Assembly (NCBI GenBank): GCA_963707025.1
Contig: CAVPOM010000018.1
Location: 608,001-672,000 of the forward strand
From: an uncultured Verrucomicrobiae bacterium
GTDB taxonomy: Bacteria > Verrucomicrobiota > Verrucomicrobiia > Limisphaerales > Palsa-1400
Direction of reading: 5' to 3'
Length of the DNA: 64,000 nucleotides
Position numbers and translations under genes: made by a program. The notes under the pieces are model-generated. The model made no database searches. It was not told the origin of the DNA and saw only the letters and a program-made list of their open reading frames with translations. Below are positions 42,350 through 64,000 of this stretch, piece by piece. Within the stretch, counting starts at the first letter, position 1. Each line of letters begins with the position of its first letter.

Positions 42350-42354
42350 CCCGG

Positions 42355-43638: not shown

Positions 43639-43738
43639 GGCCGGGCCCAAGCAAACTATAGGCGGGCGCGCCGTGTCAATCCTCCTTCGGCTCGCCACCC
43701 GCTTCGGGTTCATTCCACTTCCTTGTCCAGCCCTTCTG

Positions 43739-48881: not shown

Positions 48882-50501
48882 TTACGGTGTCTTTGGCGCT
48901 GGCGTGGAAAGGCCGCTGGTTTTGCCGGCAAAGGCCAGCGCGCCGGTTGGGCAATGACGCACGCATTCCTCCGCCACCGCCCCCAGGCCCTCCTCGATGG
49001 AACGGTCGAATGGCCCGGCCACTCGCACGTCAAAGCCGCGTCCGATAAAAGCCAGGCCCAGCGGTTCGGCCGCCATTTCGGCCAGCTTCACGCAAATCCC
49101 GCAGAGAATGCATTTGCCCGGCTCGAAGATGATGCCGCCGGGCTGGAGTTGCTGGTTAAAGGGCCGGCGCTCCGACCGGAACCGGCTGGCGTCGGCGCCA
49201 TAAACTTGCGCGTAGTGCTGCAGCAGGCAGTTGCCCGACGACCGGCAGTCGCAATGCAGGCAGCGCGCCGCCTCCGTCATGGCCTCGCCGGGGTTGATGG
49301 CAGAGCACCGGGCGCAGGGCGCCACGCTGTGTTGCTGGCTGGCGGTGCGCAGGAATTCCCGCAGTTCGCCCGGCTCCAACCGGCCCATGATGCTGGAGAA
49401 CGGTTTCTCCGGGCGGCGCGGCGGCTGGCCGCGCAAAAACCGGTGGACGCACTCGGCCGCCGCCCGGCCCTCGGCCATGGCCCGCACCAGTTGTTTGACA
49501 GGCTTGACGCAGGCGCCGGCGGCAAAGACATGGGGCGGACTGAGGCGGCAGGTGGACGGGTCGGCCTTGAGCACGGCGCCGGCCAGCGGCAGCCCGAGTT
49601 TCCCGCCGTCATCTCCGGCCAGTTCGCCGACGGTGATCAGGATGGCGTCGAATCCGCGCCGCAAACCATCCAGAGTCACATGATTGCCCAACTCGATGCC
49701 CGTTTTGAAAGCAATTCCCATCCCCGCCAGCAAGGCCACTTCCGCTTCCAGGATGGCGGCGGACAATTCGGCTTCCGGCACGTCCCGCAGCCTCCCGCCC
49801 GGTTGGGCATTGCGGTCAATGACCGTGACGGCGTGGCCGCGCCGGGCGAGGTCATGCGCCGCCGTCAGGCCGGCCGGCCCGGCTCCAACGACCACCACGG
49901 AGCGCCTGGTGGCGGCGGCGGGTTGGCACAGGCAGGCCCTGGCCTGTTTGCCATCCTGCTTGAAATCATGCTCAGTCAGGAATCGTTCCATCTCGCGCAC
50001 CGCCGCCGGTTCATCGAAATCCCCGCGGCGGCAGCCTTGTTCGCAAGGATGGTGGCAAAGGCGGCCCAGCACACCCGCCAGGGGCAGCGCCTGGCGCATG
50101 GTGGCCACCGCCTCGTCCAGGCGGCCGGCTTGGATCTGCCGGATCATCGCGGGGATATTCAGTTGCAGCGGGCAGAGGCGATGGCAGGGCGACAGACAGT
50201 CCCCCACATGGTCGCTGAAAAGCAATTCCAGCGCGGTGCGGCGCGCCTCATGCACTTCCTCCGATTCGCTCTCGATGACCATGCCGGGCACGGCCAGGGT
50301 GGCGCAGGAAGGCACCAGGCGGCCCTGGCCGTTGGCCGCCACCTTGACCAGGCAAACCTGGCAGGAAGTGAGGGGCCCGCACTTTTCCAGGTGGCAGAGG
50401 GTGGGAATGTCCAGCCCGATCTGCCGCGCCGCCTGCAAAACGGTCCGGCCCGGCGCAACCTCCACCGGCTTTCCGTCAATACTAATTGTAAACGCGCTCA
50501 T
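48882..50501 (-). CDS. Multi-Fe-S flavoprotein: NuoG/HydA-type [2Fe-2S] N-terminus + partial GltD-like domain + C-terminal ferredoxin
   Basis: IPTLCH...SCQVCLV...PSCAT, DCLSPCHRLCP, GRLCHHPCEQGCRR, VVGAGPAGL, RCLHCDC, KCILCGIC, CPTGAL. Confidence 0.88.
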   Translation of the reverse strand: MSAFTISIDGKPVEVAPGRTVLQAARQIGLDIPTLCHLEKCGPLTSCQVCLVKVAANGQGRLVPSCATLAVPGMVIESESEEVHEARRTALELLFSDHVGDCLSPCHRLCPLQLNIPAMIRQIQAGRLDEAVATMRQALPLAGVLGRLCHHPCEQGCRRGDFDEPAAVREMERFLTEHDFKQDGKQARACLCQPAAATRRSVVVVGAGPAGLTAAHDLARRGHAVTVIDRNAQPGGRLRDVPEAELSAAILEAEVALLAGMGIAFKTGIELGNHVTLDGLRRGFDAILITVGELAGDDGGKLGLPLAGAVLKADPSTCRLSPPHVFAAGACVKPVKQLVRAMAEGRAAAECVHRFLRGQPPRRPEKPFSSIMGRLEPGELREFLRTASQQHSVAPCARCSAINPGEAMTEAARCLHCDCRSSGNCLLQHYAQVYGADASRFRSERRPFNQQLQPGGIIFEPGKCILCGICVKLAEMAAEPLGLAFIGRGFDVRVAGPFDRSIEEGLGAVAEECVRHCPTGALAFAGKTSGLSTPAPKTP

Positions 50502-52972
50502 CTCACCGCAATGGCCTCCTCCGGGCAGACCTGGCGGCAGGTGTCGCAGCGGGTGCAAATCTCCAGGTTGATTTTATGTTGGGCGTAGGGCGTCATCGGG
50601 ATGGCCTGGACCGGGCAATGCTGGGCGCACAGGGTGCAGCCGGTGCAGGCGGCGGTGACCTCGTACTTGATCAGGGCGGCGCACTGGCCGGCCGGGCAGC
50701 GCCCTTGCAGGTGCGCCTCGTATTCGCCGCGGAAGTAACGCAAGGTCGAGAGCACCGGATTGGGGGCCGTTTTCCCAAGCCCGCACAGGCTGCCGGCGCT
50801 GACCTGGCGGGCCAGCCGTTCCAGCTCCTCCAGATGGGCCCGTTGCGCCTTGCCGGCGCAAAGCTTGTCCAGAATATCCAGCATCCTTTTGGTGCCCACG
50901 CGGCAGAAGGTGCATTTGCCGCACGACTGGTCCTGCGTGAACTGAAGAAAATAGCGCGCGATATCCACCATGCACGACGAGTCGTCCAGCACCACCAGCC
51001 CGCCCGAACCCATGATGGCGCCGGCCTCGCGCAACGATTCATAATCCACCGGCGTGTCCAGCAGGCTGGCCGGCACGCAGCCCCCGGACGGTCCGCCAAT
51101 TTGCACGGCCTTGATGCGGCGGCCTTGCGCCGCGCCGCCGCCGATCTTTTCCACAATCTCGCGCAGGGTGGTCCCCATCGGCACTTCGATCAACCCGCCG
51201 CGGCGGATCTTTCCCGCCAGGGCGAACACCTTGGTGCCTTTGCTTTTGGCCGTGCCGAGGGCCGCGAACTCTTCCGCCCCATGCCGGACAATCCAGGGCG
51301 CCAGGGCCAGCGTTTCCACGTTGTTAATCAGCGTCGGTTTGCCCCACAGGCCCGACTCGGCGGGGAAGGGTGGCCGCAGCCGCGGCATGCCGCGCCGGCC
51401 TTCCACCGAGGCGATCAAGGCCGTCTCCTCGCCGCAGACAAAGGCGCCGGCGCCCTCCACCACGCTCAGGCGCAATGGAAAATGGGCCCCCAGCAAGCCC
51501 GCCCCCAGCCAGCCGCGCCGTTCCATTTCCGCAATGGCCGCCCGCACCCGCTGGACCGCCAGCGGATATTCGTGGCGGACATAGAAAATGCCCTCGTGCG
51601 CGCCCACCGCCACCGCGGCCAGCGCCAACCCCTCCAGGACACGATACGGAAAGGATTCCAGAATCATCCGGTCCATGAACGCGCCCGGGTCGCCTTCGTC
51701 GCCGTTGCAGATCACATACTTGACATCGCCCGGCTGCCGGCGGACCACGCGCCATTTTTGTCCGCTGGGAAAGCCCGCGCCGCCTCGCCCGCGCAGGCCG
51801 GAGTTTTCGATGATGGAGATGAGGTCTTCGGGAGAAAGGCGTCCATCTCCGGTGGCAGGGACGCCGCGCTGCAGCGTCCGGTCGGCGCAGCACGCCAACC
51901 CTGCCAATTCACTCGCAGAACTTGCGGGTTGCGCGGGCTGCTGCATTCCCAGGCAGCGCCGCAACGCCGCAAACCCTTCGTGCGCGAGATATTCATCCAG
52001 ATCCAGCGGATCGAGTTTGCCGAAATGTTCGGTGGCAATATGCACCTGGTCTTCCAGGAAGGCGCGGACGGAGGGATCGGCTTTGCTCATGGAAAAGCGC
52101 GCCACCTGTTGTTGCGGCGCGGCCTCATCCAGCAGCAGACCGCCCAGCAGGCCGGTCCAGAGTAGGCGGGCGCGGCGCAGCAAACCACGCGGACGAAAAT
52201 AGCGTTGCATCAGGGCGCCGGCCTGGCCGGGTGTCAGGTTGGAATAGTAGCGGGCCGCCTGGCCCGGCAGGGCGACTTCAATCAGCGGCGTGCGATGGCA
52301 CATGCCCATGCAACCGACCCGCTTGATGTGGACCTGGCCGCCGCATTGGCCCGCGCTCTGGCGCAAGGCGTGAAACAACTGATCGCTCCCCTTGGCCATG
52401 CAGCAGGAACCCAGGCCGACGTGGATTTGGGCCAGGCCCTGGCAGGCCCGGTCTCCCGGTTCCTCGGTGGACTTGACCCCGGCTGCCGCGGTCTGCCGGG
52501 CGAGATAGTCGCGGATTAGCCCCGGAGATTTCTCCGCGGAGGCGTAACCCATCGTCGCGCCGCCCATCTTCAAGACGGGCGCCAGGGTGCAACAACCCAG
52601 GCAGGCGACCGGTTCGATGGTGAACTCCTGGGCCGCATCGGTATCGGCGCCCGGAGGAATGCGCAGGTGCCTGCGCAACGCGTCCTCCACCCGCTCCGCT
52701 CCCGCGACATGACAGGCCGTGCCGCGGCAGACCCGGACAATATGTTTGCCGGCCGGCTTGAGGCGGAACATGTCGTAGAAGCTCGCCACACCGGAGATGG
52801 CCGAGGGTTGAATCCCGGTCAGTTGGGGGAGATGCTCCAGGGCCTCCTGGGGCAGGTAGCCATGATGTTCCTGCAGGGCCTGCAAAATCGGGATGAGCGC
52901 CTCGGGATTGCGCCCGATCCGCTCCACCGTTTGCTCGACAAAGTTGAGGTCAACACCTGGCATGGCCACCAT
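50498..52972 (-). CDS. Fused NuoE/HydC - NuoF/HydB NADH-oxidising flavoprotein
   Basis: CRGTAC...CLGCC, second [2Fe-2S] (GSCC...GCMGMC), GLRGRGGAGFP, CNGDEGDPGAFMDR, GGPSG, SCGKCTFCR, C-terminal 2x CxxCxxCxxxCP. Confidence 0.93.
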   Translation of the reverse strand: MVAMPGVDLNFVEQTVERIGRNPEALIPILQALQEHHGYLPQEALEHLPQLTGIQPSAISGVASFYDMFRLKPAGKHIVRVCRGTACHVAGAERVEDALRRHLRIPPGADTDAAQEFTIEPVACLGCCTLAPVLKMGGATMGYASAEKSPGLIRDYLARQTAAAGVKSTEEPGDRACQGLAQIHVGLGSCCMAKGSDQLFHALRQSAGQCGGQVHIKRVGCMGMCHRTPLIEVALPGQAARYYSNLTPGQAGALMQRYFRPRGLLRRARLLWTGLLGGLLLDEAAPQQQVARFSMSKADPSVRAFLEDQVHIATEHFGKLDPLDLDEYLAHEGFAALRRCLGMQQPAQPASSASELAGLACCADRTLQRGVPATGDGRLSPEDLISIIENSGLRGRGGAGFPSGQKWRVVRRQPGDVKYVICNGDEGDPGAFMDRMILESFPYRVLEGLALAAVAVGAHEGIFYVRHEYPLAVQRVRAAIAEMERRGWLGAGLLGAHFPLRLSVVEGAGAFVCGEETALIASVEGRRGMPRLRPPFPAESGLWGKPTLINNVETLALAPWIVRHGAEEFAALGTAKSKGTKVFALAGKIRRGGLIEVPMGTTLREIVEKIGGGAAQGRRIKAVQIGGPSGGCVPASLLDTPVDYESLREAGAIMGSGGLVVLDDSSCMVDIARYFLQFTQDQSCGKCTFCRVGTKRMLDILDKLCAGKAQRAHLEELERLARQVSAGSLCGLGKTAPNPVLSTLRYFRGEYEAHLQGRCPAGQCAALIKYEVTAACTGCTLCAQHCPVQAIPMTPYAQHKINLEICTRCDTCRQVCPEEAIAVR

Positions 52973-53050
52973 AAAACTGGGGCACGAAGGTCAGGCACAC
53001 TCCCCATATTTTGGCAAGACCGCAACAGATTTTGCCGAGGCTGAAGGTAA

Positions 53051-53113
53051 TCAATCTGCTGGCAAGCCGCTCAAGCTTTCCAGCACGTCGTTCTGGTAAT
53101 CCTTGAGTCGCTT
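53051..53113 (-). pseudogene. Possible 5' remnant of a type III restriction (Res) gene
   Basis: KRLKDYQNDVLESLSG resembles the L-K-x-Y-Q-x-x-V-L N-terminus of Res helicases; no start codon. Confidence 0.45.
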
Positions 53114-53122
53114 CGCGCAGGA

Positions 53123-53449
53123 TCAGGGCTTGGGCGGCGGTTGGTCTTTCAGGATAAGCGGCGCGGTTTGGCGCTCGCGGTAAAGTTGCTCCCGGATGCG
53201 ATGCACCTCGGCAATGACCGGATCATAGACGCGGTAGGGTTCAGCAGGGGGCGGCGGCGGCTCGGTCGCTTCACGGCGGCGCAATCGCGCCTGCAGTTCT
53301 TCAGGCGAATTCACCACCGGCCCGGAGTGCGGATGTTCCGCCAGCCATGCGTCCATTTGATCAAGAAAGCGTTGTAGGTCGCTGCCAGCCTGTTCGGCCA
53401 GCCGGTCTTTGACGGCTTCAACCTCTTGAAGAATCGGGTCAGCCTTCAT
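53123..53449 (-). CDS. Putative antitoxin partner of the PIN toxin
   Basis: DPILQEV..VKDRLA motif occurs again as DPVIAEVHRIREQL; overlaps the PIN gene stop. Confidence 0.7.
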   Translation of the reverse strand: MKADPILQEVEAVKDRLAEQAGSDLQRFLDQMDAWLAEHPHSGPVVNSPEELQARLRRREATEPPPPPAEPYRVYDPVIAEVHRIREQLYRERQTAPLILKDQPPPKP

Positions 53450-53924
53450 ACTCAATTGTTCCCATCAGTTGCAGCGGCGTGCAAACAATCGGCAAACGAT
53501 AGCCGCGCCTTTCCGCCACCGGTTGCAGCCGCGACTGTATCACGGCGTTGGCCAGATGCTTGCAATTCCAAGTCAGAAGATAGTTGATTTTGTAAACGGA
53601 TGCGAATGCTAAATGCACCGCGTCCGCTTTGGCTTTTGGCGGCAGCGGTCCGGCTGACAAGAACACTTCCGCCAACGCATCCACCGCCGGCGTGCGACGC
53701 AACACCGTCAACGTGCTCAAGGCTTGCAATCGCTGCCGGCTCATTTCCGGATCGCCCTCGGCCGCTTCGAGCAACACTTCCCCTGAAATCGAGCACTCGA
53801 AATAAGGCAGGCGCCTCCGCCACCAGTCCTCCGTCCAGACATGCCATTGATGGGCCATCGTGCCTGCCGGCGGGCGTGCGACGAGAAAACTGACCACCGC
53901 CGTATCAATGTAAACGCTTTCCAT
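53439..53924 (-). CDS. PIN-domain (VapC-like) toxin
   Basis: VYIDTAVVS, EAAEGD, DAVHLAFA...YLLTWNCKHLAN, PIVCTP. Confidence 0.9.
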   Translation of the reverse strand: MESVYIDTAVVSFLVARPPAGTMAHQWHVWTEDWWRRRLPYFECSISGEVLLEAAEGDPEMSRQRLQALSTLTVLRRTPAVDALAEVFLSAGPLPPKAKADAVHLAFASVYKINYLLTWNCKHLANAVIQSRLQPVAERRGYRLPIVCTPLQLMGTIEYEG

Positions 53925-53927
53925 CCG

Positions 53928-54068
53928 TCAATCCCCCATGATGCGGTGCATCGCGTACGGCAACTGGCAGAATTCCACGCCTGGCCGCGTCAGTTCCTTC
54001 TGGCTCATGAATTTTGCCGCCGCGAAAACCAGCAGCCGTTTCTTACCTTTGAAATCCAGTGTTGGCAT
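53928..54068 (-). pseudogene. Internally deleted type III Mod methyltransferase remnant (46 aa)
   Basis: MPTLDFKGK (Mod-like N-terminus) joined to KRLLVFAAAKFMSQKELTRPGVEFCQLPYAMHRIMGD (Mod-like C-terminus). Too short for the ORF track. Confidence 0.6.
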
Positions 54069-54224
54069 GAGCTTTTTTTTCTGGCTCTCAAGAGCCTAGC
54101 GGAACGGGAGGTGTTTGCACAGGCCAGAATTGCGGCCAGCGGGTTGTTCCGGCAGGCGGGCGTTGCTCCCCTCGTCGGCTTCCTGTTCTGGATTCGCATC
54201 GGTAGCTCTTGCGACTGGTTACCG

Positions 54225-55973
54225 TTACGGCTGTTTCACCTGGTTGGCGCCGTCCGGCCCGAGGCAGAAGAGGTTGGTCGCGCCGCGCAGGAAGAGATGG
54301 CCGCCGGCAAAGGCCGGGCTGGCCAGGAATTTGTCCGGCAGTTGGCTTCGCCCCATTTCCTGAAACTCGCGCCCGGCCCGCAGGACGACCAGGACGCCAT
54401 TTTCGCCCAGAATAAAAAGACGGTCGCCCACGATGCCGGGCGAGGCCTGCACGTCCGCATCCAGGTTCTTTTCCCAAATCCTTTTGCCATCGCCGGTCTG
54501 AAGACATTTGACGAGGCCCCCGCTGTTGACGGTGAAAACCAGTTCGCCCTGGCTGACCGGACTGACGATATCCGGGACATTGCCTTCGTCGGTCCAGGCC
54601 ACATGCGTCTTGGTCACGTCCCCTGCGCCGTCGGGGCGCAAGGCGATGAGCCTGGCCCCCGGACTGAGGAGGAGGACAAGTCCGCCGGCGAAGACGGGCG
54701 AAGGCACCACTTCATTTTCGAGCAATTGCGCGCGCCAAAGCTCCTGGCCGCCGGCCAGGGTGTAGGCGATCACCCAGGGGTTGGCCAGGGTGATGATCTG
54801 GGTCTTGCCCGCCGCTTCGGCGACGATCGGGGTGGCCCACGACGCGGGCACCTCGCGGCTGCGCTCCCACAAGACGCGTCCGCTGGCGCCCTGCAACGAA
54901 ATTAGTCTTGACCCCTGCCCGGGCGTCTCGCCCTGATCCAGTTGGATGAGCAGGTTGCTCCCCCACACGGCCAGCGAGGCGGCGTAGCCATAGGCATTCC
55001 TTAACGGGCCGAGGTATTTGGTCCAGGCAACCGAACCGTCGAAATTGAGCGCGGCGAGGTCGCCGTTGGCGAAGATGGCATAAGCCCGCCGCCCATCGGT
55101 GGCCATGGTGGAGGCCGCGTAGGTGGTGTCCTCCGGGACCTCCGCGACCTTGGGCGGACTGCCTGGAACATTTTCGACGGCCCGCCGCCAGAGCAGCGCG
55201 CCGTCGGCAACGTTGTAACAAAAAACTTCGCGTTTCGCCGCCGTGCCTCCCGAAATAAACACCCTGTCCCCCCACACCACCGGCGAACTGTGGCCCGGGG
55301 CGGGGATGGCGGAGCGCCAAACCAGAGTGGTCCCGTAGTTGGTCTGCGCGGCCACCCCGCTGCCGTCCCAGCCGCGGAAGCGCGGCCAATTGGCCTGGAA
55401 TTCGGCCAGCGCGGGCGCCTCCTCGGCCGGCGCCGCCTCCGCGCCGCTTTGGCCGGCGAGTTTTTGCCACGCGGCCTCGTTGGCGGGCAAAACGGAAGCA
55501 TTGTCAAGTCGAATTATCAGCAACGATCCCGCCACCACCAGGGCCACGGCGGCCAGCGCGACACGGGCGCGCGCGGCCAGCTTCAGGGACTGTTCGCCGG
55601 CCTCGGTTTTAGGTTGCGGCAGCGGCAGGGTTTTCGTCAGGGCCGCCGCTTTGCCGGCCGCCAGCACCAAGGCCAGCGTCCCGCCCAGCAGCAGCCAGGC
55701 GCCGGTTTTGTCCAACGCCAGGCGATGGCGGAACTTCTGGCGAAATTTCAGGTCGAGCTGGCGAATCTCCCTTTGCAGCGGCTCATTTTTCGGCGCGTCG
55801 GCCAGCTTCTCCTTGAGGGCGAGCAGTTGCGGGGATTTCCAAGGATCACCGGTGGCCGCCGCGAAATGCTCATAGACCATGACCGCGCAAAGGAGCAGAC
55901 AGAACAGGCCCGCGATGCAGGCGGTGAGCCAAAGCGCGCGAGGGAAAGGAAAAGGTTTCATGACCTGAATCAT
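54225..55973 (-). CDS. Membrane-anchored PQQ-binding-like (BamB-like) beta-propeller protein
   Basis: About three N-terminal TM segments, NWPRFRG, GHSSPVVWGDRVF, G..LW repeats, ASPAFAGG.LFLR. Alternative start 55961. Confidence 0.88.
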   Translation of the reverse strand: MIQVMKPFPFPRALWLTACIAGLFCLLLCAVMVYEHFAAATGDPWKSPQLLALKEKLADAPKNEPLQREIRQLDLKFRQKFRHRLALDKTGAWLLLGGTLALVLAAGKAAALTKTLPLPQPKTEAGEQSLKLAARARVALAAVALVVAGSLLIIRLDNASVLPANEAAWQKLAGQSGAEAAPAEEAPALAEFQANWPRFRGWDGSGVAAQTNYGTTLVWRSAIPAPGHSSPVVWGDRVFISGGTAAKREVFCYNVADGALLWRRAVENVPGSPPKVAEVPEDTTYAASTMATDGRRAYAIFANGDLAALNFDGSVAWTKYLGPLRNAYGYAASLAVWGSNLLIQLDQGETPGQGSRLISLQGASGRVLWERSREVPASWATPIVAEAAGKTQIITLANPWVIAYTLAGGQELWRAQLLENEVVPSPVFAGGLVLLLSPGARLIALRPDGAGDVTKTHVAWTDEGNVPDIVSPVSQGELVFTVNSGGLVKCLQTGDGKRIWEKNLDADVQASPGIVGDRLFILGENGVLVVLRAGREFQEMGRSQLPDKFLASPAFAGGHLFLRGATNLFCLGPDGANQVKQP

Positions 55974-56029
55974 TGGCGATGTGCTCAAGGACTCACCCAA
56001 AAGGTGGGCCCGTTTCGGAAAGAGGATTC

Positions 56030-56078
56030 CGTCGGCGGGACGCCGACGGATGCGGGCGGGACGCCCGCGCTCCCGGAA
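56030..56078. repeat. REP-like double-hairpin element
   Basis: ccgtcggcgggacgccgacgg followed by gcgggcgggacgcccgc and gctccc; a similar tail occurs near 19745-19770. Confidence 0.6.
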
Positions 56079-56099
56079 AAGTCGCTAATGATCGGGGTT

Positions 56100-57416
56100 T
56101 CATGAGGGCGCGGGTTTGTCCGGCGCCGGCATCCAGCCGAGGCGAACGCGTTCGTTGGGGCAGGCAGTGAAGCACCGGGCACAGGCGACACAGGCGCCGC
56201 GGTCCGGCTCAAAATCAGTCCGGCCCGGACGCACGGACAGCGCCACCAGTTTGAGGCCGATGACCAGTCCGGTCCAGCCGCCGAACAACAGGCAGGCCAG
56301 AGCAAAGCGGTGGCGCAAATCGGCCGCCGCCGTCAAGATGGCTTCCGGATTTTCGGCGGCGCGCTGGAGGGAAAGCGCCTCCGGGGTCATCAAGCCGTAC
56401 TCCACCGGCGCGCTTTGCTGGCGCAGGTAGCGTTCCGCCAAAGCCACCGCGGGATGAAGCTGCGCCGCCGCCGGGCTGAGTTTGGAACCGGCCCATGCGC
56501 CGGCGGCGACAAGCACCGGCAGGAGCACGAGGAGCCAGCCGAGGCGTTTTCGCTCCGCGCCCAGCCCATTGGGGTGGGTGGCGGCGGGGGCGGGTTGGCG
56601 CATCGCGCCGAACGGGCAGGACTGTTCACAGAGGCGGCATTGCGTGCAGACATCGGGCGTGACGCGGACGCGCCATTTGGAAGCCAGCGACGCCAGCCTG
56701 AGCAACCCGCCATAAGGGCAAAGGAACCGGCAATAGGGCCGGCCCACAAACATCCCGGCCAGGAGCAGGGCCGCTCCGAGAGTCAAGATGAAACTTCCGC
56801 CCGAGCGCCGGAAGAACGGAACGAACGGATCATAACGGCAGATCACAAATCCGGTCCCGGTGCCGGCGTAGATCAGGCCCGCGCCCAGAAAAAGATAAGG
56901 GATGACGCTGAGGGCCTGTTCCAGCCAGAGCGGCACGGTGACAGGCTTGAGCAGCATGAGATCCTGCAGCGCCCCCTGCGGGCAAACCGCCGCGCAAAAA
57001 GCCCGCCCCGCGAACAGGGCCAGCACGATGGGCGCGAAGCAGAAAATCAGCACCGTCACCGGCACGGCGTAGTCCGGGTTGAACAGTCCATAGACGACAT
57101 TCTGGGGCGAGCCGATCGGGCAGATGCAGCCCTGGCGGTAGAACCCAAAATAGGCCAGGGAAAAGAGGGAGAGCCAGAAAAGCCCGCGCCGGGAGCGCTT
57201 TTTGTAGATCAGCCAGGCCGCCATTCCCAGAGCGGCCAGGAACACGCCCGTATCGGCGTATTGCCGCCAAAGCTGGCGCGCGGCGGGGGTGGAGGGGGAG
57301 GGGATGCGGTAGCCGCTTTCAAAATCCGGCGGCGGGAAACGCTGTTCCGCGCAAACCACCAAGGCCAGCAGCAACATGGCTCCCAGGGCGCCGAGGAATT
57401 TGAGACGGCGAAGCAT
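56100..57416 (-). CDS. Membrane polyferredoxin (NapH/MauN/NosR-like 4Fe-4S binding protein)
   Basis: Multiple TMs, CICPIG, GRAFCAAVCPQG, RPYCRFLCPYG, CTQCRLCEQSCP, CVACARCFTACP. Confidence 0.9.
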   Translation of the reverse strand: MLRRLKFLGALGAMLLLALVVCAEQRFPPPDFESGYRIPSPSTPAARQLWRQYADTGVFLAALGMAAWLIYKKRSRRGLFWLSLFSLAYFGFYRQGCICPIGSPQNVVYGLFNPDYAVPVTVLIFCFAPIVLALFAGRAFCAAVCPQGALQDLMLLKPVTVPLWLEQALSVIPYLFLGAGLIYAGTGTGFVICRYDPFVPFFRRSGGSFILTLGAALLLAGMFVGRPYCRFLCPYGGLLRLASLASKWRVRVTPDVCTQCRLCEQSCPFGAMRQPAPAATHPNGLGAERKRLGWLLVLLPVLVAAGAWAGSKLSPAAAQLHPAVALAERYLRQQSAPVEYGLMTPEALSLQRAAENPEAILTAAADLRHRFALACLLFGGWTGLVIGLKLVALSVRPGRTDFEPDRGACVACARCFTACPNERVRLGWMPAPDKPAPS

Positions 57417-57420
57417 GACC

Positions 57421-57992
57421 TTAGCGGCTGGTGGTTTTGAGCAGGTAGGGATGGGCCGCGGGCACGCGGCGGAAGGCCTGGCCGGGGCAGGAGCGGGCGA
57501 TGGCGCACTCGTTGCAGTTGAGGCAGCGATCGTGGCGGATCTGGAGGAAGAGCGAGCCGTTGCCGAAGCGGTTGCAGCCCTCGACGCATTTGGCGCAGCC
57601 GATGCACAACTCTTCGTCAATACTATATTGATAATAGGGGTCTTCCACGTAGGCGCGCTGGATGGCGGCGGTCGGGCAGAGCTGGTTCTCCGCCGCCGTG
57701 GTCAGCTCGTTGGGCTCGGCGCGAAAAACCCGGTGCAAAGCTGGCAGTAGCCGCACACCGCATAGGCGTGGACGCATTTGACGGCGGACTGCTCCAGCAC
57801 GCACTGGGTGGCGCAGTTGCCGCAGTGCAGGCATTTGGCCGGGTCAATTTGCCACACCCAGGCCGCGCCGGTGCTGCGGGTGGCCAGCGCGCCCGCCGCC
57901 GCGCCCAGCCCGGTCATGGTCAGCAGCCGCGCGCCGTTGCGGAGAAATTGCCGCCGCGTCACCGGTGCGTCCGTTGGAGGTTTGGGGTCCAT
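57421..57992 (-). CDS. Tat-exported multi-[4Fe-4S] ferredoxin (frameshift near 57719)
   Basis: TRRQFL signal; CLHCGNCATQC, CGYCQLC; then LCPTAAI, CIGCAKCVEGC, CLNCNECAIARSCP. Confidence 0.88.
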
Positions 57993-58014
57993 CTGTTGGC
58001 TGGCTTGGGTGGGT

Positions 58015-59031
58015 TTACCCTTTCCGCTGCATCACCCGCACGTTGCTGGTCACGATGTCCAGGATGTAAATGCGTCCGGCGGAATCCACCGCCGCATCAA
58101 TGCCGCCGTGGATGCAATCGTTCAGGTCGTTGCAGGCGTGGGCGTTTTCCGGGAAGGATTCCGCCCCCGCCACCACGGACTCAAACTCGCCGCCGGCGCT
58201 GTAAATTTTCACGCGCGGAATGCCCTTCTCACAGGTCACGATCCGCCCGTCGGCCAGGGCGGCCAGGCCGATGGGATTGCAACAGCCGCAGAACCCCTCG
58301 GTGGCGGCGCTGGGTTTGCCCCAGGCGCCCTCCAGATCGCCGTCAAAAGTGTAGGCTTCGATCTGATGCCGGCCCGGATTGTTGACACGCAACAAGCCGT
58401 CCCGATGGATGATCACGTCCAGAAACGGACTGGGCACGATGAGTCCCGGCACGTTGCGCTGCGCATTCTTCCGGCCGATCCGCCCGACGATCTTTCCGCT
58501 CCGGTCGTAGCGCAGCACGACCAGTTTGACGGCATCGGCCGCAAAGACATCCTGCCCGCCCGCCGCCAGCCCGGTAAACCAGGTCTTCGGGTCCGGCGAT
58601 TCCCAACGGGCCGTGCGCCCGCCCTTGGCGTCAAACACCTCGATGTGGTCGCGCAAGCCGGCGAAAATGGTTCCCTCCCCGGCCACGGCGACACAGCCGG
58701 CCGGGCCCGCCAGGGCCAATTCCAATCCGGGCTGGCCGGAGCGGCTCAGCAAATTGATATAGTTGCCCGCGCACACATAAAGCTGGTCATCGGGCCCGAT
58801 GGCCAGCCGGCGGGCGTCCTTGTGCGGAACCGGCCAGCGCGTGACTTCCTCGTAGGCGATGAGTTTGGGATCGGTCTTCTGGAAACGGGAAACGTCGTAG
58901 GCAAAAGGGTTGGCCGTTCCCTGTCCGGCCGCGCCGGCCCGCGCACCGCCCGCCAGGCCCAGGAGGGCGGCGGTTTTGGCGACGACACCGAAAAACTCCC
59001 TTCGGTCGAGCAGCTCAAGTTCTGGTTTCAT
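58015..59031 (-). CDS. Tat-exported NHL-type beta-propeller protein with an FCGCCNP motif
   Basis: DRREFF signal, NHL-like repeats, EGFCGCCNP, VTCEKGIPRVKIY, AVDSAGRIYILD. Confidence 0.82.
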   Translation of the reverse strand: MKPELELLDRREFFGVVAKTAALLGLAGGARAGAAGQGTANPFAYDVSRFQKTDPKLIAYEEVTRWPVPHKDARRLAIGPDDQLYVCAGNYINLLSRSGQPGLELALAGPAGCVAVAGEGTIFAGLRDHIEVFDAKGGRTARWESPDPKTWFTGLAAGGQDVFAADAVKLVVLRYDRSGKIVGRIGRKNAQRNVPGLIVPSPFLDVIIHRDGLLRVNNPGRHQIEAYTFDGDLEGAWGKPSAATEGFCGCCNPIGLAALADGRIVTCEKGIPRVKIYSAGGEFESVVAGAESFPENAHACNDLNDCIHGGIDAAVDSAGRIYILDIVTSNVRVMQRKG

Positions 59032-59279
59032 AGCGGCCTCGAGGTGGATGGGCCGAGCGCTTGCTTGGCGGACAAAGCGTTGGGCAGCCCGCAGTCTTCA
59101 AAAACCGCGCAACCCCGGCAGAGGCCGGCGCTGATGCAGACCTGGCCGGCGGGCCGGGCGGCCTCGCGCCCGGCCAGCCGGCCGGTCACCGCGGCCAGCC
59201 CGCCCAGGATGGCGAAGCGCAGCCCGTCGCGCAGGAATTGGCGGCGGCCGGCGCTGGAATTGGGAGAGCGTCTGTTCAT
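59028..59279 (-). CDS. Small Tat-signal four-cysteine protein
   Basis: GRRQFLR, a hydrophobic stretch, then C-x5-C-x2-C-x5-C; ATGA-coupled to the next gene. Confidence 0.75.
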   Translation of the reverse strand: MNRRSPNSSAGRRQFLRDGLRFAILGGLAAVTGRLAGREAARPAGQVCISAGLCRGCAVFEDCGLPNALSAKQALGPSTSRPL

Positions 59280-59512
59280 GACTCAGCCATTGGCATCAGC
59301 ATCCGCCATTGGAAAGAAACAGGCTTACCTTCTTTTGTTCAAGCCTTGACATTTCTTGCTTTGTTTTCGGATTGGCCCGTATGGAGAGATCATATCCAAA
59401 ATGGGTTCGTTTCTCTGCATGTTGGATTCAATAAAACATCCATAAGGGGCTTATTTTTAACTACTTATGAGTTTTTACATTTGGGTTCGTTTGGCAAAAA
59501 AGCGTTTTTTGG

Positions 59513-60484
59513 TCAAGGTCTGTCCGACACCTCCATGGTGATGGGCGGCGGGACGGCCTCGCCGTGGCGCATGCGCTGCAAGCGCTCCAACTGGATCATG
59601 GCGCGAAACATCTGCCGCTCCAGCTTGGTTTCGTAGCGCAGGATTTTGTCCAGGACCTCCGGCGCCGGCAGCACGGCCGCCGCCTGGCGCGCCTGCTCTT
59701 CGTTTGCCTCGCGCTTTTGACAAGCAGCTTTCAACCAGCCGAGCATGGCCAATTCTTTGTTCAAATAAGCCAGCGCTTTCTTATTATTCCGCTCCTGCAG
59801 GGCGGCGGCCTGCAAACCTTCCGGATTTTCCCGCAGTTTGAGGCGGAGTTCCTGCAAACCGCGCGTCAGGCGGTTGGGTTTGTGAAAATGCTGGACGAAC
59901 TCCTGGATGGCGGCCTCGGTCAGCCCGCCGGTTTTCTCCACCGCTGATTGAACATCGTCCAGGAATTTTTCGAGCAGGTGAATCCCCCAAACCGACTCTT
60001 CCATGCTGGCGATGGGGTCTGCAAAGGACTCCCAGAGCGTCCAGCGCAATTCCATCTGCGGCCGGCCGCGCGCCCACTGGCCTTGGTCCACGCTCAAGAC
60101 GATTTCGCCCGATTCGGCCCGCAAAGCCCGGCGCAGGCGCCAGTGGGTGGTGACGATCTGGTCCACGAGCATTTCCTCCACCGGCCCGGCCGGCTTTAAC
60201 TCCTGCCAGAACCGCTCGGAGAGGGCGTCCAATTCCCGGCTGTTTTCATGGAGATTCAACCCGCGCACCAGCACCTCCCTGGAGAGGATGCCGTGCTGGA
60301 GGGCGTTCATTTTGGAAACGGCGCGGCCCCGCGGGGTTTTCGGCCCGGTGGATTTGAGGGCGTTGCGCCGGTTGGCGGCGAGTTTTTTCAAGGAAACCGA
60401 TCCGGGCACAGGCTTATGCTTGTTTTCATTGGCCGTGACAGGGGCCGGCCCCGGCCTGTCATTGGGGAGGTTTTGTTCATTCAT
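59513..60484 (-). CDS. Hypothetical protein of the 'ANRRNA.KSTGPKT..G' family
   Basis: KKLAANRRNALKSTGPKTPRGRAVSKMNALQHG, WRLRRA, ILRYETKLERQMFRA..QLERLQ. Confidence 0.8.
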   Translation of the reverse strand: MNEQNLPNDRPGPAPVTANENKHKPVPGSVSLKKLAANRRNALKSTGPKTPRGRAVSKMNALQHGILSREVLVRGLNLHENSRELDALSERFWQELKPAGPVEEMLVDQIVTTHWRLRRALRAESGEIVLSVDQGQWARGRPQMELRWTLWESFADPIASMEESVWGIHLLEKFLDDVQSAVEKTGGLTEAAIQEFVQHFHKPNRLTRGLQELRLKLRENPEGLQAAALQERNNKKALAYLNKELAMLGWLKAACQKREANEEQARQAAAVLPAPEVLDKILRYETKLERQMFRAMIQLERLQRMRHGEAVPPPITMEVSDRP

Positions 60485-60491
60485 GCCTGGC

Positions 60492-60541
60492 AATATATTC
60501 CCAAAGACATAATATGTCAATAGATTAATATTCCCAAAGAC
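60492..60541 (-). promoter_or_regulatory. Sigma70 promoter with overlapping direct and inverted repeats
   Basis: TTGACA-17-TATATT-7-ATG; ATATTCCCAAAGAC at 60495 and 60528; palindrome GACATA-A-TATGTC at 60506-60518. Confidence 0.7.
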
Positions 60542-60992
60542 GTTTTTTCTGCGCGGTATGCGGGAAGCCCTGCACAAGTCAGGCTCGACGCAGGCGCAAC
60601 TGGGCGAAGCCTCGGGTAGTGCCTTAATCAGGGGAATTATATACGACATTACCCCGGGCTGGTTTTTATGGCGTTTGCAAATAACTGATGATCCAGTTTT
60701 TGGTTGGTTAGGAAGGTCGGGAGTTTGGGCGGGGATAATATCTGTTTGGCTTTCCACGACTTGTCTCAGGCAAGGCAGTTTTGTCCCCATTATTTCGTCT
60801 CCCCAATGGGCAACCCATGTTCAGCTTTCCGGGCTTGACCCTTGCACGAATGCTTTCGGAGGGCAAAATCATGGAAGGCAATATCATAAGAGGGGCCGGC
60901 TGAAACCAGACGAATTGGCGACAAAGGAAGGCAGGAGGAAGGGGCGCAAGCAAAGCGAGGATTGCAAAGGGAGCCTGGAAAGGCCGGAAAAC

Positions 60993-61259
60993 TCAGGGGC
61001 ATCTTGTCCGATAGGGCAAATATATGGTTTGACCCCTTTGACCCCTTTGCTTGCCGTCCGCGGAATTGACCTCGACAAGAACCCGGCTTGGATGACCGCG
61101 CCTGGCAAGCTTGCTCGAAATCACGGCGACGATGGTTTGTGCCAAACCGCTGTCGAGATTGTTCCGCTGGATGACCAACGCGGGACGACGCTTGGCCGTG
61201 CGTAGATCGGAATTTGGGAAAAGCACCAGGGCAACCTCACCGCGTCGTGTCTTTGTCAT
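60993..61259 (-). pseudogene. PemK/MazF toxin, C-terminally truncated
   Basis: RGEVALVLFPNSDLRTAKRRPALVIQ...IVAVISS. Similarity ends near 61047, where a GGGGTCAAA tandem begins. Confidence 0.8.
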
Positions 61260-61470
61260 AAATGTCGGCTTCCGGCCGATCCCAATCCTCGGCGAAGGTC
61301 TTCAATCGCGCACGAAGTTCGGCGGCTTGAGCTTCGTCAATTCCCCGCGCCGGCAAGTCAACGCCGCTGGATTCAAGCAACGTCACCAACACGCGTGATT
61401 GGCTCACTTGCGGAGGTGTCTTGGCGAGCTCCACTTTTCCATTCTTATAGGTGCCTTCGATAGTCAGCAT
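61237..61470 (-). CDS. Putative antitoxin upstream of the MazF-like toxin
   Basis: MLTIEGTYKNGKVEL...VLVTLL...FAEDWDRPEADIYD; overlaps the toxin start. Confidence 0.8.
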   Translation of the reverse strand: MLTIEGTYKNGKVELAKTPPQVSQSRVLVTLLESSGVDLPARGIDEAQAAELRARLKTFAEDWDRPEADIYDKDTTR

Positions 61471-61548
61471 AACTATCTGTGAAAATACCACGCGTGGCTG
61501 GCTTTGTGAAGCCAAAGTGAGATTAAAATTAGGAATGGCGGCCGGAGA

Positions 61549-62967
61549 TTATTTTGGGGGCGAGGGCGCCGCAACGTCCAGGCAGACCAGGCGGGTGAAG
61601 TCGCGGGCCAGGAGACGGCCCCCAACCAGGGCCATCGGGCCCCAGGCCTCGCCGCCTTTGAGGACTTGGGCCTGGGCCAGAAGCTGGAAGCGCGTCGAGC
61701 TGTCTTCCATCAAACTGAGTTTGCCGTCCTCGTTCATCACAAAGAAAAGGCCGTCGGCCAGCAGGAAGGGAGACCTTCCGAAGGAATCCACCGCCGGGCT
61801 GGCCCAGACCACTTTGCCGTCCAGGCCCAGGCAGACGAATTGGCCGTTGGGCCGGGTGCCGAAGATATGGCCATCGTGGAAAATGGGGGTCTGCTGGGTC
61901 GCGCCGAAAATTTCCGGAGGGAGCTTCCAGAGCGTTTTTGGCACGAGCCGGCCAGCCTGGTCCTCGAGTTGGAGGAGCAGGCTGCCGGCGTTGTAGCCGC
62001 CGGACAGAAAGATCTTCCCGCCTTCCAGCACGAGCGGCGAGGGCACGGTGGCGATGCTGATTTTCCAGGAGTTGGTTTCCCAGAGCAGCGCGCCGTCTTT
62101 GGCCGAAATGCCGGCCACACCGCCGCTGGCGCAATAGACATAAAACCGCTGGCCGCCGAATTCCATCGGCATGACGGAAGAATGGGTCATCTTCCAGCCG
62201 CGGGGATTGGGCGCGCGCCAGAGGGTTTTTCCGGTCGCAAGGTCCACGGCGGCGAGCAGGGCATCGTGGCCGCCGGGGGCCAGAATGACGGCGTTGCCGT
62301 CCAGGAGCGGGCATTGGCCGGCGTACCACAGCGGAACGGTCGCTCCATATTCGGAGACCAGGTTCATGCCCCAGCGCAATTCCCCCGAGGCCGCGTCCAG
62401 ACAAAGGACATGGCACTTGGGATCCATGGCGACGACGAATTTGTCCGAGACGGCCGGCACGGTGCGGGTCATGCCATGGTTTTGCTTGACTGTCAGGGTG
62501 TAGGCGTAGCGCCAAATCTCGCCGCCGTCGGCCAGGGAGAGACAGCGCAGAGCGTTCCGCTTTTTGGCCTTGTCGTAATCCATGAGGTAAACGCGCCCCT
62601 GCTGCACGGCGACGCCGGCATAACCGTCCCCGCAATCCACGGCCCACAACTGGCGCGGCCCGGCGGGGTCCCAGGCGCGGGCCAGGGGCGTGGATTCCGG
62701 GCTGATGCCATCGCGATGAGGCCCGCGGAACTGGGGCCAGAAGCCGGGGAGATTGGCCGGCTGGGCCTTGCCTGGGATGAGTTTGCCGGCCAGGATGGGA
62801 TTGAGCGCAGCCGCGCCGTCAGCGCCGGGCGGCTGATCGGCTCCGGGAAGGCGCTCGGAAAGAGTCTTTGCATCCGGATGCGCCCACCAGAAAAGCAGCG
62901 CGGCCAGGGCGCAAACCGCGGCCAGCAGCGGCAAGGCCGCAGCGTATCGAGAACGATCAAATTTCAT
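61549..62967 (-). CDS. PQQ-binding-like (BamB-like) beta-propeller protein with N-terminal anchor
   Basis: WPQFRGPHRDG, GYAGVAV..GRVY, G..LW repeats, WGPMALVGGRLLARD. Confidence 0.88.
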   Translation of the reverse strand: MKFDRSRYAAALPLLAAVCALAALLFWWAHPDAKTLSERLPGADQPPGADGAAALNPILAGKLIPGKAQPANLPGFWPQFRGPHRDGISPESTPLARAWDPAGPRQLWAVDCGDGYAGVAVQQGRVYLMDYDKAKKRNALRCLSLADGGEIWRYAYTLTVKQNHGMTRTVPAVSDKFVVAMDPKCHVLCLDAASGELRWGMNLVSEYGATVPLWYAGQCPLLDGNAVILAPGGHDALLAAVDLATGKTLWRAPNPRGWKMTHSSVMPMEFGGQRFYVYCASGGVAGISAKDGALLWETNSWKISIATVPSPLVLEGGKIFLSGGYNAGSLLLQLEDQAGRLVPKTLWKLPPEIFGATQQTPIFHDGHIFGTRPNGQFVCLGLDGKVVWASPAVDSFGRSPFLLADGLFFVMNEDGKLSLMEDSSTRFQLLAQAQVLKGGEAWGPMALVGGRLLARDFTRLVCLDVAAPSPPK

Positions 62968-63131
62968 CGCGGCACCCGGAGAACTTTACTGTCCATGCCG
63001 TGGGGGAAACAATGCCAAAGCGTTTGCCACAGCGAATTATACCGTTTCCAGTTCGTAACGGCACTATTGCCAAGGCGATTGGCGGCGGTCGCAGACCGCC
63101 GCTACAGTGCAAAAGCAAACCGGAAAAGGTA

Positions 63132-64000
63132 TTAAAGGGCCGGGGCGGGCTTCCAGGCGTCGGCCTCCAGTTCAAAGAGCAGATCGTCCCGACAGATGCC
63201 GCACTGCGCGGCCAGGGCCGGCAGGGAACGCAAATCGCGCCGGGCGCACCAGGCGGCGAATTCCGGCAGGCTGGCGCGATTCTTGAAATAGGCGGTGGCG
63301 CGGGTGATGTCGGAAAAGGCAAAGCCGCGCGAGGCCAAAATGATTTCGACCACTTCCATGGTGTGCTGGATTTGCCGGCGCAGGTTCCCCGGCCACAGCG
63401 TCTGCCCGCCGGCCGCGATGCTGGCCGTGCCGGAAATCAAAAGACGGCGGCCGTGGAGGGAGGAAATCTCCATGGCGCGGCTGAAGGAACTGCCATAGGC
63501 CGCGGCGGGACACTGCAAGGGGGAGTGAACTTCGGCAAGGCGCGCGGAGGAGTCCAGGGGTTGCACCGCCCAGGCGCCGGCCACCAGCGCGGTGCCAGCG
63601 GGATTCCGGGCGGAAATACCCGTGCTGGCCGGCGAGGATCCGCTGCGAAAATTGATGCGCGCATAGGCCTGCGTTCTGGCCTGGTTGAAGGGGCGGTACC
63701 AGGAAAGAAGCTCATCGAGATAGAACCAGGTGCGCACGACATCGCCCAGCGCGAAACCGGCTTGGGCCAGGGCGGTTTCCATAAGTCCCAGCGTTTGCCG
63801 GAATTGATCGGGGCGCGCAGCGGAAAACAGGCTCGGCCCCAGGCCGCCCAGCAGACAATGGCGCAGGGCGCCGTCTTCAAAGACAGAACCGACGACCCGG
63901 CCGTGGAGCGCGATGGGCTGGACCCGGCCGGCGCTGAAAGCGAAGGCCTGCATGCCCGGCGATCGGATGGCCATCACACCCGGCGCCTTCCACCCAAGTG
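63132..64000 (-). CDS. Tandem Rid/YjgF-fold protein (chorismatase-like architecture); 5' end probably beyond the window
   Basis: VVRTWFYL..LLSWY..FNQART, PASTGI, YGSSFSRA, LLISGTASI, ICRDDLLFELEADA. Confidence 0.82.
   Translation of the reverse strand, partial: LGWKAPGVMAIRSPGMQAFAFSAGRVQPIALHGRVVGSVFEDGALRHCLLGGLGPSLFSAARPDQFRQTLGLMETALAQAGFALGDVVRTWFYLDELLSWYRPFNQARTQAYARINFRSGSSPASTGISARNPAGTALVAGAWAVQPLDSSARLAEVHSPLQCPAAAYGSSFSRAMEISSLHGRRLLISGTASIAAGGQTLWPGNLRRQIQHTMEVVEIILASRGFAFSDITRATAYFKNRASLPEFAAWCARRDLRSLPALAAQCGICRDDLLFELEADAWKPAPAL

Follow-up and report, generated by a model that had tools for sequence, protein, structure and literature searches.

A conserved operon of Verrucomicrobiota and Planctomycetota that may wire a Bfu-family flavoprotein to periplasmic propeller proteins

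Whether a cytoplasmic flavoprotein, a membrane iron-sulfur (Fe-S) protein and several exported beta-propellers can belong to one redox machine, and what such a machine would act on, is the question raised by positions 48,882 to 64,000 of a 64,000-nucleotide stretch of DNA (the window) from an uncultured Verrucomicrobiae bacterium (contig CAVPOM010000018.1 of assembly GCA_963707025.1), whose closest homologs lie in records named Verrucomicrobiota or Limisphaerales. The initial annotation described nine co-oriented genes at this position as a membrane-spanning complex that links a HydBC-like flavoprotein to periplasmic propellers. All nine genes are indeed on the minus strand, although the run is not contiguous and contains two insertions, likewise on the minus strand. 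The domain calls of the nine genes are backed by Pfam and NCBIfam, and the translational couplings at 59031/59028, 57421/57416 and 50501/50498 are borne out by the coordinates. The core unit consists of eight genes, which encode a pyrroloquinoline quinone (PQQ)-like propeller (PQQa), a small 4-Cys protein, an NHL propeller, a polyferredoxin, a NapH-like membrane protein, a second PQQ-like propeller (PQQb), a fused NuoE-NuoF-like subunit (BfuCB) and a further Fe-S/flavin subunit (BfuA). Their products probably form one transmembrane redox assembly.

The gene order of this unit is widely conserved. A relative of the NHL propeller is encoded at 406 loci in GTDB, of which the best 80 were fetched and analysed, and 53 of these have at least 8.5 kb of downstream DNA. 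The order NHL, polyferredoxin, NapH-like protein, PQQb, BfuCB and BfuA is found in 50 of the 53 (PQQb directly follows the NapH-like gene in the same number), the remaining three end after PQQb or BfuCB, and the neighbourhood comparison that the initial annotation proposed as a check comes out in favour of the operon. The six-gene order recurs in distant loci and its conservation is far beyond chance. Carriers are mostly Verrucomicrobiota and Planctomycetota, with single loci in records named Poribacteria and Latescibacterota; the polyferredoxin was found in 26/251 Verrucomicrobiota and 34/251 Planctomycetota sampled, which puts the operon in about a tenth of the sampled members of these phyla. 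PQQa adjoins the operon in 38 of the 80 loci and has an ortholog in 41 of 44 operon-bearing genomes searched. The ninth gene of the run, a tandem Rid/FkbO-like gene (63132..64000, with its start beyond the window and a one-base indel just outside it), had been counted as part of the complex, but it is not core because it adjoins the cluster in only 5/80 loci, all of them close kin, and has an ortholog (E<1e-79) in 16/44 operon-bearing genomes. Over the 40 kb read upstream of 64000, where the rest of the operon had been expected, a transposase-like open reading frame (ORF) and sugar genes were recognised by eye and no catalytic subunit is among the ORFs listed. The transposase-like ORF and a small partner ORF stand directly upstream of the Rid gene (L001:2519-4403, past the window end; by eye). 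No description of the operon was found in the literature searched, a body of text outside which most subscription papers fall.

The fused subunit BfuCB (50498..52972, 824 amino acids) combines a NuoE-like with a NuoF-like part, as the initial annotation had it, and carries the ligand sets of C1, B5, the FMN site, B1, B2, B3 and B4. Among PDB sequences it is closest to the Nfn type of the bifurcating Bfu enzymes: the NfnB subunits of 9n5u, 9bov and 8oh5 are the top matches (E about 1e-200), HydB ranks behind them and NuoF follows at a large distance. The relevant passages of Schut et al. (PMC9304861) define Bfu enzymes by the BfuB domains IPR011538/019554/019575/017896 together with a BfuC [2Fe-2S] domain, and BfuCB has both on one chain, with Pfam matches to Complex1_51K, SLBB, NADH_4Fe-4S, Fer4 and 2Fe-2S_thioredx. 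The ligands of C1, B5, B1, B2, B3 and B4 are kept in 52-58 of 58 homologs. The B2 set comprises C667 and C705 (58/58) and H754, C759 and C764 (57/58), with a spacing of 38-49-5-5 compared to 38-49-6-5 in the published A. mobile set, and the same passages state that its His is absent from non-bifurcating homologs (Schut et al., PMC9304861). BfuCB possesses this His/Cys set as well as the C-terminal B3 and B4 clusters, whose eight Cys occur in 56-57 of the 58 homologs. The B5 site in the N-terminal thioredoxin-like domain (C191 58/58, C221 57/58, C225 52/58) aligns to NfnB and may bind Zn by analogy with Csac NfnB, as that site is described in a section of PMC11829005. On sequence grounds the cytoplasmic part is a member of the Bfu family, made up of a fused BfuCB and an Nfn-type BfuA, with the predicted ligands of the bifurcation core kept. 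A role of BfuCB as a missing N-module of complex I was considered and rejected, because a separate NuoF is encoded elsewhere in the genome, 2.4 kb away from NuoD on contig C9.

BfuA (48882..50501, 539 amino acids) finds its best PDB matches in the NfnA/StnC subunits of 9bov, 8oh5 and 9n5u. It shares with them the FAD motif GAGPAGL and the six Cys of A6 and A7 (51/51 homologs), and the fourth ligand of A7, a Lys in known Nfn, aligns to a Glu here. The His-ligated site, which is presumably the one named A3 in Bfu structures, is retained in H98 (51/51) and C417, C419 and C425 (50/51). Three Cys of A4 are replaced in comparison with 9bov, and the chain stops short of A5 and has no pseudo-Fdh domain at its C-terminus. 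The NADP(H)-binding domain that characterises Nfn-Bfu is also absent: the chain is about 155 residues shorter between the flanking motifs and lacks GGGNxA and YRR. These motifs are missing in 39 of 49 complete BfuA copies and present in ten, all ten belonging to one Verrucomicrobiota lineage. The family shows the reduction step by step, as distant copies measure 444-447 amino acids, then 327-342 without the FAD motif, and finally about 220 fused to BfuCB. The C-terminal half of the FAD domain is lost in L171 and L181, the whole FAD domain in L172 and L185, and the whole Nfn insert in L173, L176 and L190, where only the fused remnant of about 220 residues is left. Therefore NADP(H) cannot be the general third substrate, and the combined loss of NADP(H) domain and flavin insert implies that electrons likely leave via the NapH-like protein. 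The point of exit would be A3, by analogy with what is proposed for Type 3 enzymes in the corresponding passages of PMC9304861.

In a quick tree of 48 BfuA sequences the ten long forms are separated from the 38 short ones, which come from both phyla and make up one clade (SH-aLRT, an approximate likelihood-ratio support, of 100). A FastTree phylogeny of 46 BfuCB sequences, rooted on a planctomycete, places the partners of the ten long BfuAs in one clade nested among short-form Verrucomicrobiota. The simplest reading would be an old NADP-less state of BfuA and a single later regain of the intact form. A rule by which a long BfuA goes with the loss of PQQa was discarded, as PQQa is present elsewhere in the genomes of 14 of the 15 loci concerned.

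Compared with the Nfn-Bfu/Stn enzymes (NfnABC of Caldicellulosiruptor saccharolyticus, 9bov, Sporomusa ovata, 8oh5, and Thermococcus sibiricus, 9n5u), which give the best PDB matches of BfuB and BfuA, the operon has the same position of the GltD-type insert and the same cluster ligands. Unlike them, it encodes C and B as one fused chain, together with six membrane or periplasmic partners. Its BfuA has no A4/A5 ligands and no pseudo-Fdh domain, 39/49 copies have lost the NADP(H) domain, and in the host's lineage other residues stand in place of the FAD-flanking Asp and the A7 Lys. The Type 3 and membrane-bound Bfu enzymes (NiFe-Bfu, Nuo-Bfu and Mbh-Bfu), so far as the passages devoted to them go (Schut et al. 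2022, PMC9304861), likewise join a BfuBC core to subunits that would feed A3, although the partners here are a NapH-like protein, a polyferredoxin with a twin-arginine translocation (Tat) signal and propellers, with no antiporter or hydrogenase subunits. By sequence the operon would therefore be placed within the Bfu family but outside Nfn-Bfu, resembling Type 3 minus A4 and A5. Bfu enzymes are classed by their third substrate, and 17 clades are listed without an assigned function in the pertinent part of PMC9304861; members of the operon could be among the unassigned clades of its tree of 1558 BfuB sequences. The terms 'propeller' and 'Verrucomicrob' are absent from the main text of that paper.

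The NapH/MauN-like membrane Fe-S protein (56100..57416) has a signal peptide, about seven helices (six above the threshold and one more inferred below it), two CxxxCP motifs and a split 2[4Fe-4S] domain, which is the combination expected of a polytopic protein of the NapH/MauN kind, and its Cys are kept in 73-75 of 75 homologs. It scores 43 bits each against TIGR02163 (cut-off 213) and NF007013 (cut-off 234), well short of membership in either model, and no homolog was found in a PDB sequence search. Averaged hydropathy and the Lys/Arg bias predict both halves of the 2[4Fe-4S] domain and both CxxxCP motifs to be on the cytoplasmic side, and C97, C99 and C193 on the periplasmic side. PQQb (54225..55973) is likely a scaffold; it begins with three membrane helices, after which comes a PQQ-like propeller predicted to be periplasmic. 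In the NapGH, NosGH and MauMN modules a Tat polyferredoxin precedes a CxxxCP membrane Fe-S protein, and in nos and mau clusters such a module adjoins a periplasmic propeller enzyme. The operon repeats the sequence of a twin-arginine polyferredoxin and a CxxxCP membrane protein, but it is fed by a cytoplasmic Bfu module, its propellers are neither NosZ nor MauB, and its membrane protein is far below the NapH cut-off.

The Tat polyferredoxin (57421..57992, 190 amino acids in relatives) has 17 conserved Cys, kept in 80-81 of 81 homologs, is predicted to hold four [4Fe-4S] clusters, carries the twin-arginine motif RRx[FLMW] in 74/74 and gives only weak ferredoxin matches among PDB sequences. In the window the gene is split by a one-base deletion near 57717; because the extra base is present in 4/4 relatives compared and in the contigs of 4/4 runs, this frameshift is most likely an assembly error, and the intact copy of a relative was used for the analyses. 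The small 4-Cys protein (59028..59279) is membrane-anchored and bears a twin-arginine signal; the Cys of its C-X5-C-X2-C-X5-C motif are found in 63/63 aligned homologs, it belongs to no Pfam family, and it is predicted to carry a single Fe-S or metal site. The NHL propeller (58015..59031) is six-bladed, with a structure model of pLDDT 93.8 that matches NHL folds at Z up to 31 and 14-17% identity, and has a GCCNP loop with C250 and C251. The CCNP motif forms part of a loop between blades, and 149 of 150 distant representatives retain it. A four-Cys cluster of C248, C250, C251 and C267 was rejected because only the Cys pair is near-invariant: the first Cys of CGCC is found in 96/150 representatives and the remaining one in 21/150. 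The pair is predicted to be a redox-active dithiol or a pair of metal ligands.

PQQa (61549..62967, 472 amino acids; Pfam PQQ_2) has an N-terminal anchor and an eight-bladed BamB/PQQ-like propeller (model pLDDT 89), with BamB and tetrathionate hydrolase as best fold matches. H164, C219 and H262 are invariant (38/38) in inter-blade loops equivalent to the Cys-Cys loop of NHL, and the secondary structure suggests that these loops lie on one face. Fold searches with NHL and PQQa returned generic NHL and BamB folds and did not reveal a function. Both PQQa and PQQb reach 20 bits against TIGR03075 (cut-off 480), which is not the behaviour of a PQQ-dependent dehydrogenase; a search of the host for pqqC gave no match, with control genomes equally silent. 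PQQa is fused to NHL in two records, L216 and P0241, the latter with a hydrophobic stretch between the domains that may indicate a merged call. A three-chain structure prediction, of the kind that the initial annotation recommended, gave a score of 0.45 for NHL against PQQa plus polyferredoxin, compared with 0.13 for the best control, which had a substitute for PQQa; at least 87% of contacts are shared between runs and partner pLDDT is at least 86. In calibration the mark was reached by 116/157 solved and 2/215 mismatched pairs, at scores of 0.60 or less by 18 solved pairs and both mismatches, and the NHL job is unlike the calibration set; the prediction agrees with a complex and is graded weak. 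PQQa and NHL are most likely the propeller unit of a predicted periplasmic site. Related propellers occur in other settings. In L179:6297-9569 (G130) and L188:4702-8702 (G372) a CCNP-type NHL propeller, a Cys-bearing phosphonate-binding-like protein (PF12974), a polyferredoxin and a NapH-like protein are encoded with no adjacent Bfu genes, and by eye the unit in L188 adjoins genes that look like those of carbon monoxide dehydrogenase/acetyl-CoA synthase. In L037:7995-12484 and L038:8021-12332 two tandem CCNP-type NHL propellers are followed by a PF12974-PQQ propeller fusion, a second and ferredoxin-free use of the Cys-Cys propeller.

A wire through the membrane from NADH and ferredoxin to exported propellers, as first envisaged, fits the gene order, the Fe-S ligands and the predicted topology, provided that four changes are made: the Bfu module lacks the NADP(H) domain, Rid is left out, PQQa and NHL most likely act as one unit, and in distant genomes the operon belongs to a larger cyclase cluster. 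It is proposed that BfuCB, by analogy with Bfu structures, would confurcate electrons from NADH and reduced ferredoxin, which would pass along A1, A2 and A3 of BfuA and exit at A3, here possibly via the residual A6/A7/FAD part. On the predicted topology the NapH-like protein would take them up at its cytoplasmic 2[4Fe-4S] domain, and its CxxxCP and C97/C99/C193 sites would lead them across the membrane. From there the polyferredoxin, together with the 4-Cys protein, could carry them to the Cys-Cys loop of NHL, which would face the His/Cys/His loops of PQQa, and the PQQa-NHL pair would perform a reductive step of a cell-envelope isoprenoid-lipid pathway under anoxia. Gene context suggests that the substrate might come from a cluster of a squalene-hopene cyclase-like (SHC-like) enzyme, a DUF116-prenyl synthase, a glycosyltransferase and an FtsX-type ATP-binding cassette (ABC) transporter. 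What is observed are the gene order, the conserved ligands, the domain losses, the fusions and the co-occurrence, and from these the assembly, direction and substrate are proposed. The balance tips towards an outward direction of the electrons, an envelope lipid as the client falls just short of an even chance, and the scheme as a whole, in which the Bfu module is wired via the NapH-like protein and polyferredoxin to PQQa-NHL for an oxygen-free reductive step in an envelope-lipid pathway, is the preferred but tentative reading.

The lipid part of this reading derives from the neighbours of distant operons, which are flanked by or co-oriented with genes for an SHC-like cyclase, a prenyltransferase-fold protein, a DUF116-polyprenyl synthase fusion and a radical SAM enzyme, and further with a Cys-rich ferredoxin-like protein, a CobW-type GTPase, a GT4 glycosyltransferase, a LolD/FtsX-type ABC transporter and additional propellers. 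The embedding in this cluster is repeated, in different orders, in two phyla. The SHC-like cyclase is found in 22 of 25 operon-bearing versus 2 of 225 other Verrucomicrobiota sampled, and in 26 of 34 operon-bearing versus 38 of 217 other Planctomycetota. Where both are present, cyclase and operon share a contig and are no more than about 16 kb apart in 11/22 Verrucomicrobiota and 10/26 Planctomycetota, and in G575 and G484 a single co-oriented run extends from the cyclase to BfuA. An FtsX-type permease was found in 20/25 operon-bearing Verrucomicrobiota (E<1e-40), with divergent copies adjacent in three more. Oxygen use was compared in 80 genomes from outside the host's own order: heme-copper oxidase is present in 37 of 38 cyclase-only planctomycetes versus 11 of 33 operon-bearing ones, and in 0/9 hand-picked operon-bearing Verrucomicrobiota. 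In five aerobic cyclase-only planctomycetes the NHL profile gave no match in a search that had no positive control, and PQQa-like matches appeared in two of the five, only at E 1e-63 to 1e-74. These cyclase and oxidase counts describe a pattern and are no test, because the kin are not independent. The SHC-like cyclase clade has no demonstrated function according to the part of PMC12324236 that deals with it, and the DUF116-polyprenyl synthetase fusion is noted in a passage of PMC5898192. The neighbours in distant loci share domains and their range among the PVC bacteria with these two, which makes them putative members of the SHC-like clade and of the fusion type, and the passages concerned (PMC12324236, PMC5898192) mention no redox wire.

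Several observations touch the same cluster. In L219, L221, L222 and L228 an ORF of GcvH size (by eye) and a Cys-rich ferredoxin-like gene accompany the cyclase and the DUF116-prenyl synthase, and the aerobic loci L219, L221 and L222 have no radical SAM gene in the 20 kb read. L230 (G366) belongs to a planctomycete that, alone among those with the cyclase, has neither a heme-copper oxidase nor a detected polyferredoxin; its cluster runs off a 6-kb contig. Genes that by eye encode GltD-like, Rieske, cytochrome b and cytochrome c proteins lie near the operon at L155:10848-17606 (G097). The host itself encodes a squalene-hopene cyclase of canonical score (G000:C17:103763-105940, PF13243, E 4.5e-137), which is distinct from the SHC-like clade.

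A number of findings weigh against the preferred reading, above all against its lipid part. The host genome (88% complete) was searched and yielded no SHC-like cyclase, DUF116 or matching radical SAM gene; its ABC permease, GT4 glycosyltransferase and extra propellers are all dispersed, and it has heme-copper oxidases. In its own order four genomes have operon and cyclase, 19 the operon only, 13 the cyclase only and 24 neither, so that the cyclase is found in 4/23 carriers versus 13/37 non-carriers. The permease is present in 55/60 of these relatives, operon or not, and was dropped as a specific marker for being too widespread in this order. Among the 11 linked Verrucomicrobiota four belong to a single genus, and one was the source of the query. 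The propellers are predicted to be periplasmic, whereas the cyclase module presumably works in the cytoplasm, and the twin-arginine motif of NHL is present in 53/65 sequences in the loci and 42/150 representatives. As to the unity of the operon, L174 has polyferredoxin and NapH only, L178 is without Bfu within the 20 kb read, and the tree built from the membrane and periplasmic proteins does not unite the loci with a long BfuA in a single clade.

The 19 of 23 carriers in the host's own order without an SHC-like module would be expected if the complex were a stand-alone anaerobic terminal reductase. The wire would then keep the redox balance by unloading electrons of NADH and ferredoxin, at the Cys-Cys site of the propeller, onto an external disulfide, sulfur compound or humic quinone, with the lipid genes being only old neighbours. 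The enrichment of the operon in genomes without heme-copper oxidase, the tetrathionate hydrolase among the fold matches of PQQa and the failure to find Rnf or FeFe-hydrogenase in the host genome point the same way. This explanation is unlikely, although it fares best among the alternatives, as the repeated embedding in the cyclase/GT4/ABC cluster, in differing orders and in two phyla, speaks against it, and the host has its own complex I NuoF as well as NiFe-type large subunits. A partnership with an FeFe-hydrogenase was rejected, PF02906 not being found in the 88%-complete host genome.

The oxidase pattern also bears on the direction of flow. The absence of the wire where oxygen respiration could act as a sink is compatible with inward flow. 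In that case a periplasmic substrate of low potential would be oxidised by the propeller pair, and BfuCB would bifurcate the resulting electrons between NAD+ and ferredoxin, which could supply the cluster's radical SAM and Fe-S enzymes. Bfu enzymes can work in both directions, and this is the one taken by several that have been characterised, as set out in sections of PMC9304861. However, the donor would have to be near -400 mV, no W/Mo, NiFe or heme catalytic subunit is encoded and PQQa is far under the cut-offs of quinoprotein models, which makes inward flow less probable still.

NapGH is a quinol dehydrogenase, and the family similarity to NapH/MauN with two CxxxCP motifs would permit the NapH-like protein to be a quinone site. 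The complex would then be a counterpart of Nuo-Bfu that does not pump and that uses NADH and ferredoxin to reduce menaquinone, the acceptor proposed for Nuo-Bfu in a passage of PMC9304861, and the propellers would be scaffolds or a secondary branch. The invariant surface His and Cys of PQQa and NHL and the fusion of the two would go unexplained, and the score of the NapH-like protein is one fifth of the NapH cut-off, so that this must be regarded as improbable. That the operon houses two independent units, of which one is a soluble transhydrogenase of degenerate Nfn type and the other a periplasmic module fed by quinol, draws on the intact NADP(H) domain in one Verrucomicrobiota lineage (10/49) and on the paralogous NHL, PhnD-like, polyferredoxin and NapH loci without adjacent Bfu genes (L179, L188), but is very improbable given that no soluble third substrate is evident for a BfuA that has lost its NADP(H) site and that the Bfu genes follow PQQb in 50/53 loci and stay in place even where they are fused and minimised.

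The outward wire to a lipid-modifying propeller unit would add to the types described in the relevant sections of PMC9304861 a third port of another kind, a NapGH-like path to the periplasm. It would also connect redox chemistry with the SHC-like clade, the substrate of which is at issue in terpenoid evolution according to the corresponding part of PMC12324236, and the model predicts which residues and which mutant matter. A bolder form of the proposal, in which a new class of bifurcating complex exports low-potential electrons and a cofactor-free or shared-metal site between NHL and PQQa carries out an oxygen-independent step on an SHC-like terpenoid, is rather doubtful; if true, it would mean a new Bfu type and an anaerobic branch of an unknown, possibly biomarker-forming, membrane lipid.

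The two interruptions of the run lie outside the system. Between PQQa and the 4-Cys gene 2,176 bp (59373..61548) hold an antitoxin-sized ORF (61237-61515), a PemK/MazF fragment (60993-61259, E 9e-9) and a family-less ORF of 425 amino acids (59513-60790). The contigs of two of the four runs (X3 and X5) skip this segment and join 59372 directly to 61549; it is a strain-level insertion. The same interval is an insertion hot spot in L043, L044, L047 and L050, where it holds a lipoprotein-like gene with a glycosidase-associated domain or toxin-antitoxin genes. Between PQQb and BfuCB lies a pair of ORFs (53123..53924) that look by eye like a toxin-antitoxin pair; the label PIN is tentative, Pfam having given no PIN match, and a homolog of the first ORF is found at the same place in 1/80 loci. 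Genes split over two frames occur at window positions 44593-45656 and 46900-48007 and at G000:C1:12563-13832 (a phosphate acetyltransferase, an aminotransferase-like gene recognised by eye and the GT4 ortholog), suggesting an indel-prone assembly. Elsewhere in the window, positions 40170-43713 encode what by eye is sugar-acid catabolism, with an enolase-superfamily dehydratase, an MFS transporter and a fumarylacetoacetate-hydrolase-like ORF. Short palindromic elements in the intergenic regions at 56017-56075 and about 63080-63120 show a high contig depth from many organisms and are probably a dispersed repeat.

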